From the NCBI RefSeq assembly GCF_055900595.2, contig NZ_CM148325.1: a stretch of DNA of 64,000 nucleotides. One strand, given 5' to 3'. Shown here piece after piece: positions 10,756 to 10,953 of the stretch. The position numbers were made by a program, and so were the translations under genes. Each line of letters opens with the position of its first letter. Position 1 is the first letter of the stretch. The notes under the pieces are model-generated. The model was not told the origin of the DNA. It did not search any database and saw only the letters and a program-made list of their open reading frames with translations.

Positions 10756-10953
10756 AGGGCGCGCATATTAACTTTGTAACGTCATAGAGTCAAAGAAAAA
10801 GGCAGCCTGTGGTTGCCTTTTGCCAATAATTCGCACACATTGCGGGTTACTGCTTTATTTTCGTTCAGTGCTGATAACGAACATCAACCTGCAAAACGAA
10901 GCGCATAGTTTAAAATGGCTATCATCAATACGCTATATCTGTTGGAAAAAAAT

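Follow-up and report, generated by a model that had tools for sequence, protein, structure and literature searches.

The small RNA gene sraB in the yceD-yceF spacer of Escherichia coli and related loci in Enterobacteriaceae

The small RNA (sRNA) SraB, also named PsrD, was discovered by Argaman et al., 2001. Annotation of the gene in K-12 dates from 2001, and Rfam contains a curated family for it, so that recognizing it again has no value as a discovery. In K-12 MG1655, the ncRNA gene sraB (b4418) occupies 1146589..1146757, on the strand of yceD. All RNA-seq data sets agree on a main start site 60 nt into the annotated gene, and a product of ~105 nt has been reported; SraB of Salmonella SL1344 starts at the equivalent place and is a 99-nt RNA (PMC7967276, PMC8313858). 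Full-length SraB transcripts were detected in late stationary phase, according to work cited in PMC8313858. The sigma-70 promoter annotated for the long form has been termed "deceptively attractive" (PMC7967276). Several further observations concern SraB: it is more than 4-fold repressed by ppGpp in Salmonella (PMC3963941), it was induced 5.1-fold in the sRNA gene table of a study of the replication-inhibition response (PMC11228462), and it was tied to survival in egg albumen in a study of Salmonella Enteritidis, as cited in PMC3963941.

SraB/PsrD is biochemically among the best-characterized ligands of ProQ, yet it has no documented target. [quoted passage not shown] SraB of K-12 is highly enriched in ProQ co-immunoprecipitation and forms a 1:1 complex with the protein, being bound by the N-terminal FinO domain while also contacting the linker and the C-terminal domain (PMC5393179). 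It elutes together with other ProQ-bound sRNAs, among them the antisense RNAs SibA-E and Sok (PMC9808575). [quoted passage not shown] Two reports concern Hfq: a lower level of SraB is mentioned for an hfq deletion mutant of K. pneumoniae, and Hfq cross-linking of SraB has likewise been described.

SraB shares with other ProQ-specific RNAs (the cspE and malM 3' UTRs, SibA-E, and RaiZ) a lower stem formed by an A-run and the U-tail and at least four terminal U. Unlike these RNAs, it is a free-standing intergenic gene rather than a 3' UTR fragment or an antisense RNA to a toxin. It is also larger, contacts the linker and the C-terminal domain of ProQ in addition, and has no known target.

The locus that we describe lies in a 64,000-nucleotide stretch of Escherichia coli DNA (hereafter the window; RefSeq assembly GCF_055900595.2, contig NZ_CM148325.1), in inverted orientation relative to K-12 MG1655. 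The spacer between the divergent genes yceD and yceF measures 198 bp, as had been claimed, and occupies 10756..10953 between the ATGs at 10755 and 10954. A longer yceF reading frame from 10915 was dismissed as an artefact of the open reading frame listing; the RefSeq start of yceF is 10954. The interval 10600..11100 is 100% identical to several RefSeq genomes, and the region is found in 5424 of the 5426 complete E. coli genomes. Across PGAP-annotated RefSeq E. coli genomes, the body of SraB carries no feature, and an ncRNA sraB entry exists only in the curated K-12 record. Raw-sequence scans are therefore bound to rediscover sraB.

The initial annotation, made from the letters alone, had proposed a possible small RNA locus in this spacer, named SraB of the K-12 yceF/yceD interval with the strand left uncertain, and suggested an Rfam scan; the absence of an Rfam hit and of a discrete small transcript were to count against it. 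We scanned 10000..12000 on both strands with the Rfam covariance models and then the whole window at gathering thresholds. SraB (RF00077) matches 10960..10792 on the minus strand over model positions 1-169 of 169, with 203.5 bits (E 6.6e-44; gathering score 130), and the whole-window scan confirms this match. The same scan finds no SraB match on the plus strand. Together with the K-12 annotation, this places the gene on the minus strand of the window, the strand of yceD, and both the Rfam family and the synteny with b4418 bear out the naming of SraB. A discrete SraB RNA is reported in the K-12 and Salmonella literature. The spacer feature is thus the already known, annotated sRNA gene sraB, and its hairpin is the SraB terminator.

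The window and K-12 agree in the locus, the strand relative to yceD, the length, and both ends of the gene, with the same 7-nt overlap of yceF and the same 36-nt gap to the yceD ATG. They differ at two positions. At 10879, in the loop of hairpin 1, the window has C and K-12 has T; at 10942, the window has A and K-12 has T, and this A breaks one pair of the Rfam 5' hairpin with no compensating change. Other candidate features in the spacer were rejected. P37 (19.6 bits) and BASRCI337 (19.2 bits) fall far under their Rfam thresholds. Two potential small proteins were discarded as well: a 9-codon reading frame (MFVISTERK) in hairpin 1, whose ATG is missing from Salmonella and which falls within a lineage-specific block, and a 13-codon reading frame in the 5' part of sraB. 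The coordinates of the features are collected in Table 1.

Table 1. Features of the sraB locus, in window coordinates.
Feature	Coordinates	Strand	Basis and remarks
yceD coding sequence	10234..10755	-	ATG at 10755; flanking gene, on the SraB strand
yceD-rpmF promoter (TTGACT, 17 bp, TAATAT)	10765..10793	-	adjoins the SraB U-tract; GCGCGCCCT and the ATG (10755) come next
SraB intrinsic terminator	10792..10821	-	Rfam structure line, folds, hairpin kept in 39/39 variants
A-run AAAA at the base of the terminator stem	10818..10821	-	pairs with the U tail; columns 51-55/55 conserved
Hairpin 2	10826..10850	-	Rfam structure; nearly invariant block CCGCAAUGUGUGCGAAU at 10845..10829 (17 nt)
Lineage-specific 56-nt block	10850..10905	-	includes hairpin 1 and the start of the short form
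Hairpin 1 of the short form	10860..10900	-	fold -13.4 kcal/mol, z -3.2, 0/200 shuffles as good
Short (~109-nt) SraB	10792..10900	-	main transcript according to the literature; start ~10900 (+/-2), mapped from K-12 coordinates
sraB/psrD, 169-nt form annotated in K-12	10792..10960	-	RF00077 full length; 167/169 identical to K-12 b4418
Internal SraB promoter, -10 TAAACT	10907..10912	-	7 nt before the start site given in the literature
Candidate yceF -10 TAAAAT	10911..10916	+	sequence; predicted function; TAAAAT in 69/79 loci
yceF coding sequence	10954..11538	+	ATG at 10954; divergent flanking gene
-10 TAAAAT annotated for the 169-nt form	10966..10971	-	sequence; inside yceF codons 5-6

The scan of the window also returned matches away from this locus. 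RNase E 5' UTR element rne5 (RF00040) lies at 12821..13157 on the plus strand (260 bits), as expected upstream of rne. STnc490 (4185..4308, minus strand, 146 bits), ES056 (54194..54285, plus strand, 120 bits), and the PyrC leader (34879..34928, plus strand, 69 bits) also score above their gathering thresholds. RNA-OUT (RF00240), the antisense RNA of IS10/Tn10, matches 59183..59252 on the minus strand with 97 bits, which suggests an IS10-type element near the tRNA-Ser(GGA) gene at 61223..61310. Between yceF and rluC, at 11546..11618, there is a REP-like palindromic element; in the scan of 10000..12000 it matches naRNA4 on both strands with 55-56 bits, slightly short of the 59.5-bit gathering score.

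The feature that had first drawn attention to the spacer is a hairpin with flanking A- and T-runs. Its string, GGCAGCCTGTGGTTGCC, does occur once in the window (0 matches in 100 shuffles), but at 10801..10817 rather than at about 10808..10832, where it had been placed 7-15 nt too far right. The flanks are as described, with AAAAA at 10796..10800 and TTTT at 10818..10821, so that the paired region spans 10797..10821. The pairing itself had been misread: it is not GGCAGCC-TGTGG-TTGCC but GGCAGCC/TGT/GGTTGCC. On the transcribed minus strand, the 5' arm is AAAAGGCAACC (10821..10811), the loop is ACA (10810..10808), and the 3' arm is GGCUGCCUUUU (10807..10797). The 3' arm is followed by UCUUU, and the U-rich tail, UUUUUCUUU, continues to 10792. 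This stem of 11 positions with a 3-nt loop and a U-rich tail is a Rho-independent terminator at the 3' end of SraB.

One A.C mismatch (10813/10805) interrupts the stem, and because of it the minus-strand hairpin is unremarkable against shuffles (-11.2 kcal/mol, z -1.4; 20/200 shuffles as good). The same mismatch explains why a simple consensus terminator scan did not list the SraB terminator. On the plus strand, where this position is a G.U pair, the fold reaches -15.2 kcal/mol (z -3.5). We considered this asymmetry as an indicator of strand and rejected it: E. coli favors the plus strand (-15.2 versus -10.8 to -11.2 kcal/mol), but across the 39 variants the better-folding strand splits 22 versus 17, and the asymmetry is therefore uninformative on direction. 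What the scan listed instead, a plus-strand site at 10827..10849, is SraB hairpin 2 read in reverse complement; with 1 site found versus 0.8 expected, it is not meaningful.

Comparison among Enterobacteriaceae gives the hairpin its context. Our comparison set consists of the best 80 YceD loci of the family, oriented on the yceD start, which comprise 55 distinct sequences and 39 terminator variants. The hairpin and its T5CT3 tract are kept in all 39 distinct variants. The base of the stem is invariant, while the apex varies in sequence and length, with four pairs changed on both sides. Pair counting over the 55 distinct sequences finds 89% of cells in the terminator helix paired, and in slid-register controls the paired share falls from 84% to 34-50%. 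The covariation score of the 3' domain is 0.136 against a shuffle mean of 0.113 (1/500 shuffles reach the observed value; slid controls are clearly worse), which on its own is weak evidence because most pairs are invariant. Taken together with the full-length Rfam match, the conservation of hairpin and tract indicates that the hairpin lies beyond chance by context.

The mismatch is itself widespread. The mid-stem position (the 10805/10813 column) is unpaired in 34 of the 55 distinct sequences. E. coli, Kosakonia, and Kluyvera have A.C there, and Enterobacter and Leclercia have G.U. The Enterobacter/Leclercia stem differs from that of E. coli simply in both partners of the mismatch. This distribution points to a conserved imperfection, not a random defect.

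We find comparative support for the internal start site of SraB. At the internal -10 position, TAAACT is exact in 79 of the 80 loci. No recognizable -35 element accompanies it, either in the promoter scan or by eye. Among the aligned genera, Escherichia and Intestinirhabdus alone have TAAAAT at the -10 position of the annotated long form. The 109-nt form folds more stably than its shuffles (-33.1 kcal/mol, z -2.86, 1/200), whereas the 169-nt form shows no such advantage (z -1.36). The conservation of the -10 elements, the folding of the two forms, and the broken pair at 10942 together support the internal start as the conserved one. A candidate -10 of yceF lies back to back with the SraB -10 and overlaps it by 2 bp; an overlapping divergent yceF promoter, P2, has been mentioned (PMC7967276).

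These results bear on whether SraB acts as a cis-antisense RNA of yceF. The 169-nt form is complementary to the yceF 5' UTR and the first 7 coding nt, and it could block translation or interfere with transcription. Its annotated 5' end at 10960 overlaps the start codon region of yceF, the long transcripts cited for late stationary phase would have this overlap, transcription of yceF is barely detectable while SraB is abundant (PMC7967276), and the ProQ-bound sRNAs with which PsrD co-elutes include antisense RNAs (PMC9808575). However, the main start lies 60 nt downstream in all RNA-seq data sets, and the ~109-nt RNA therefore has no overlap with a yceF mRNA started from the candidate -10; overlap with yceF mRNA on the opposite strand is true of the annotated 169-nt form and false of the ~109-nt form. 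The restricted distribution of the long-form -10, the uncompensated break in the 5' hairpin, and the ordinary folding of the 169-nt form also speak against an antisense role. Such a role is possible for the 169-nt form only, where RNA-seq and conservation disfavor it, and we regard it as rather improbable.

The two upstream hairpins of the short form are conserved in different ways. The inner four pairs of hairpin 2 are identical in 49-51 of the 55 distinct sequences, and its sequence is conserved with no covariation. The block CCGCAAUGUGUGCGAAU is therefore a candidate seed or protein contact. Hairpin 1 is confined to fewer genomes, and six of its pairs show compensatory changes among the five long-type sequences. 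It is carried on a 56-nt block whose occurrence, among the best 80 YceD loci, is limited to E. coli, E. albertii, Salmonella, one Citrobacter (L066), and Intestinirhabdus. The remaining sampled genera, including Winslowiella (Erwiniaceae), have no such block and a spacer of ~140 bp. An origin of the block as a repeat or mobile element was rejected, as it occurs in one place per E. coli genome. In the EcN_Sk genome (H18), the hairpin-1 block is only 81% identical.

Rfam scores follow this division. Long-type loci score 159-204 bits for SraB (Intestinirhabdus 105.5), and short-type loci score 36-92 bits (E 1e-16 to 2e-3), which is significant but under the gathering score of 130. The short SraB-like loci, found in Kosakonia, Enterobacter, Raoultella, Kluyvera, Leclercia, and others, share with E. 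coli the synteny, the TAAACT element, the hairpin 2 block, and the terminator, but they have no hairpin-1 block. With the block absent and the internal start kept, most genera would make an RNA of 52-54 nt, consisting of hairpin 2 and the terminator. Throughout the best 80 YceD loci, the 3' 54 nt of SraB and the adjacent yceD promoter are almost invariant.

Four loci of the set have unusual spacers. In L004 (Escherichia sp. MOD1-EC7003), identity to E. coli is 98% from locus position 1411 on (SraB 3' 54 nt, yceD, rpmF, and plsX), whereas positions 1..1411 (yceF and the 5' spacer) have 72% identity to E. coli and ~88% to Pseudocitrobacter, with no 56-nt block. Two origins fit this locus: recombination with its breakpoint precisely at the conserved CCGCAATGTG block, or chimeric assembly. 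The spacer of L053 has an insertion at 1344..1390 that matches both ERIC primer sequences, parts the 5' conserved segment from the terminator, and replaces hairpin 2. For L057 and L061, spacer length, a displaced 5' block, and sequence resemblance suggest putative insertions; a search of these two spacers for the ERIC primers gave no match.

The near invariance of the 3' part raises the question of selection on DNA rather than on RNA. The palindrome and the 3' block might serve only as upstream DNA of the yceD-rpmF promoter, with the T-tract resembling an upstream promoter element or the block forming a protein site, and the RNA might be transcriptional noise that a bidirectional yceF promoter produces. 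The T-tract borders immediately on the -35, and between the terminator base and the ATG the length is constant and the sequence almost so. The covariation-free conservation of hairpin 2 and the back-to-back -10 elements would fit as well, as would GTGCGAATTATTGGC (10838..10824), which by eye resembles a putative Fis-type site ~75 bp upstream of the yceD start. Yet the terminator apex varies in sequence and length with the hairpin retained in every variant, hairpin 1 has compensatory changes, and SraB is an abundant RNA to which ProQ binds specifically. In these data, a transcribed sRNA gene has better support than a one-sided DNA-level reading, to which we give very little credence. Constraint on the upstream region of the yceD promoter could partly account for the invariance of the 3' 54 nt.

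Immediately downstream of SraB, the yceD-rpmF promoter is the sole promoter-like site that the scan of the spacer returned. None of the best 80 YceD loci shows variation in its -35 or -10, in the GC-rich stretch that leads to the start codon, or in the start codon itself, and from the U-tract to the yceD ATG the distance is constant and the sequence nearly so. The yceD promoter was reportedly mapped by Tanaka in 1989. About 10 nt separate the -10 from the start codon, implying that the yceD mRNA has little or no leader. Consistent with this, yceD has been described as having no 5' leader (PMC4378010).

This arrangement also allows SraB to be seen as a cis leader or attenuator, that is, as the terminated 5' part of a yceD-rpmF transcript whose regulated read-through sets expression of the operon. 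SraB is on the yceD strand with its 3' end 36 nt before the ATG, and Argaman 2001, as cited in PMC8313858, proposed read-through of the terminator in log phase. The A.C mismatch found in most genera leaves the terminator less than maximally strong, and the repression of Salmonella SraB by ppGpp resembles that of ribosomal genes (PMC3963941). Against this, a complete, invariant promoter stands between terminator and ATG in 80/80 loci. yceD has been described as translated leaderless (PMC4378010), and a read-through transcript would leave the yceD ATG internal and without a Shine-Dalgarno sequence. SraB moreover accumulates as a discrete, abundant, ProQ-bound species. The Rfam scan of 10000..12000 matched no ribosomal-protein leader family. 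A cis leader or attenuator of yceD-rpmF is quite unlikely.

The properties of the SraB 3' end are those of a ProQ ligand. By sequence and fold, SraB has the terminator hairpin with at least four U, and AAAA stands immediately 5' of the terminator stem. The A-run and T-run of the hairpin that the initial annotation had flagged as unexpected between divergent promoters are thus the published signature of ProQ-specific RNAs.

We conclude that sraB is, with very high probability, an independently transcribed minus-strand sRNA gene whose ~109-nt product starts at the internal promoter, stops at the terminator, and is bound by ProQ. That it is a minus-strand sRNA ended at the terminator and bound by ProQ is established by the sequence here and by the literature for K-12 and Salmonella. 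Transcription would begin mainly at the internal promoter (-10 TAAACT, 10912..10907; start ~10900), with the annotated start at 10960 perhaps used in late stationary phase, and would end at the Rho-independent terminator (10821..10797, U tail to 10792). The resulting ~109-nt RNA is predicted to have three hairpins. The paired A-run/U-run base of its stem, together with the terminal U (at least four), would serve the FinO domain of ProQ as its docking site and would disfavor Hfq.

Stabilization by ProQ is a feature of the class of ProQ-bound sRNAs, and SraB is presumably stabilized in the same way. We infer that SraB may regulate by ProQ-dependent base pairing in trans, most likely through the hairpin-2 region CCGCAAUGUGUGCGAAU. 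This trans-acting step is the weakest link of the proposal, since SraB has no documented target or phenotype mechanism. The terminator may in addition shield the adjacent, invariant, leaderless yceD-rpmF promoter from upstream transcription.

Beyond the known gene, our comparison contributes material that is only mildly new: a conserved core of ~53 nt, a lineage-specific 56-nt module, and comparative support for the internal start. It suggests one evolutionary reading, which we put forward tentatively and with considerable doubt. The ancestral unit in Enterobacteriaceae might have been a ~53-nt RNA, composed of hairpin 2 and a ProQ-type terminator and transcribed from the invariant TAAACT; the Escherichia-Salmonella-Citrobacter lineage would then have doubled the size of this RNA by gaining a 56-nt hairpin module, present in single copy. 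The conserved function would then be tied to the yceD-rpmF promoter.

If this reading is true, the ancestral RNA would stop right at the -35 of the yceD-rpmF promoter, which is leaderless and GC-rich and serves ribosome and lipid genes. The terminator might then act as an insulator, with read-through giving a leadered instead of a leaderless yceD mRNA; alternatively, the CCGCAAUGUGUGCGAAU block might be a real seed. The annotated 5' 60 nt would lie outside the functional RNA. Half of E. coli SraB is a lineage-specific addition. The comparison can thus guide experiments toward the internal start, the 54-nt core that is shared family-wide, and the invariant 17-nt block as the candidate functional region of SraB.
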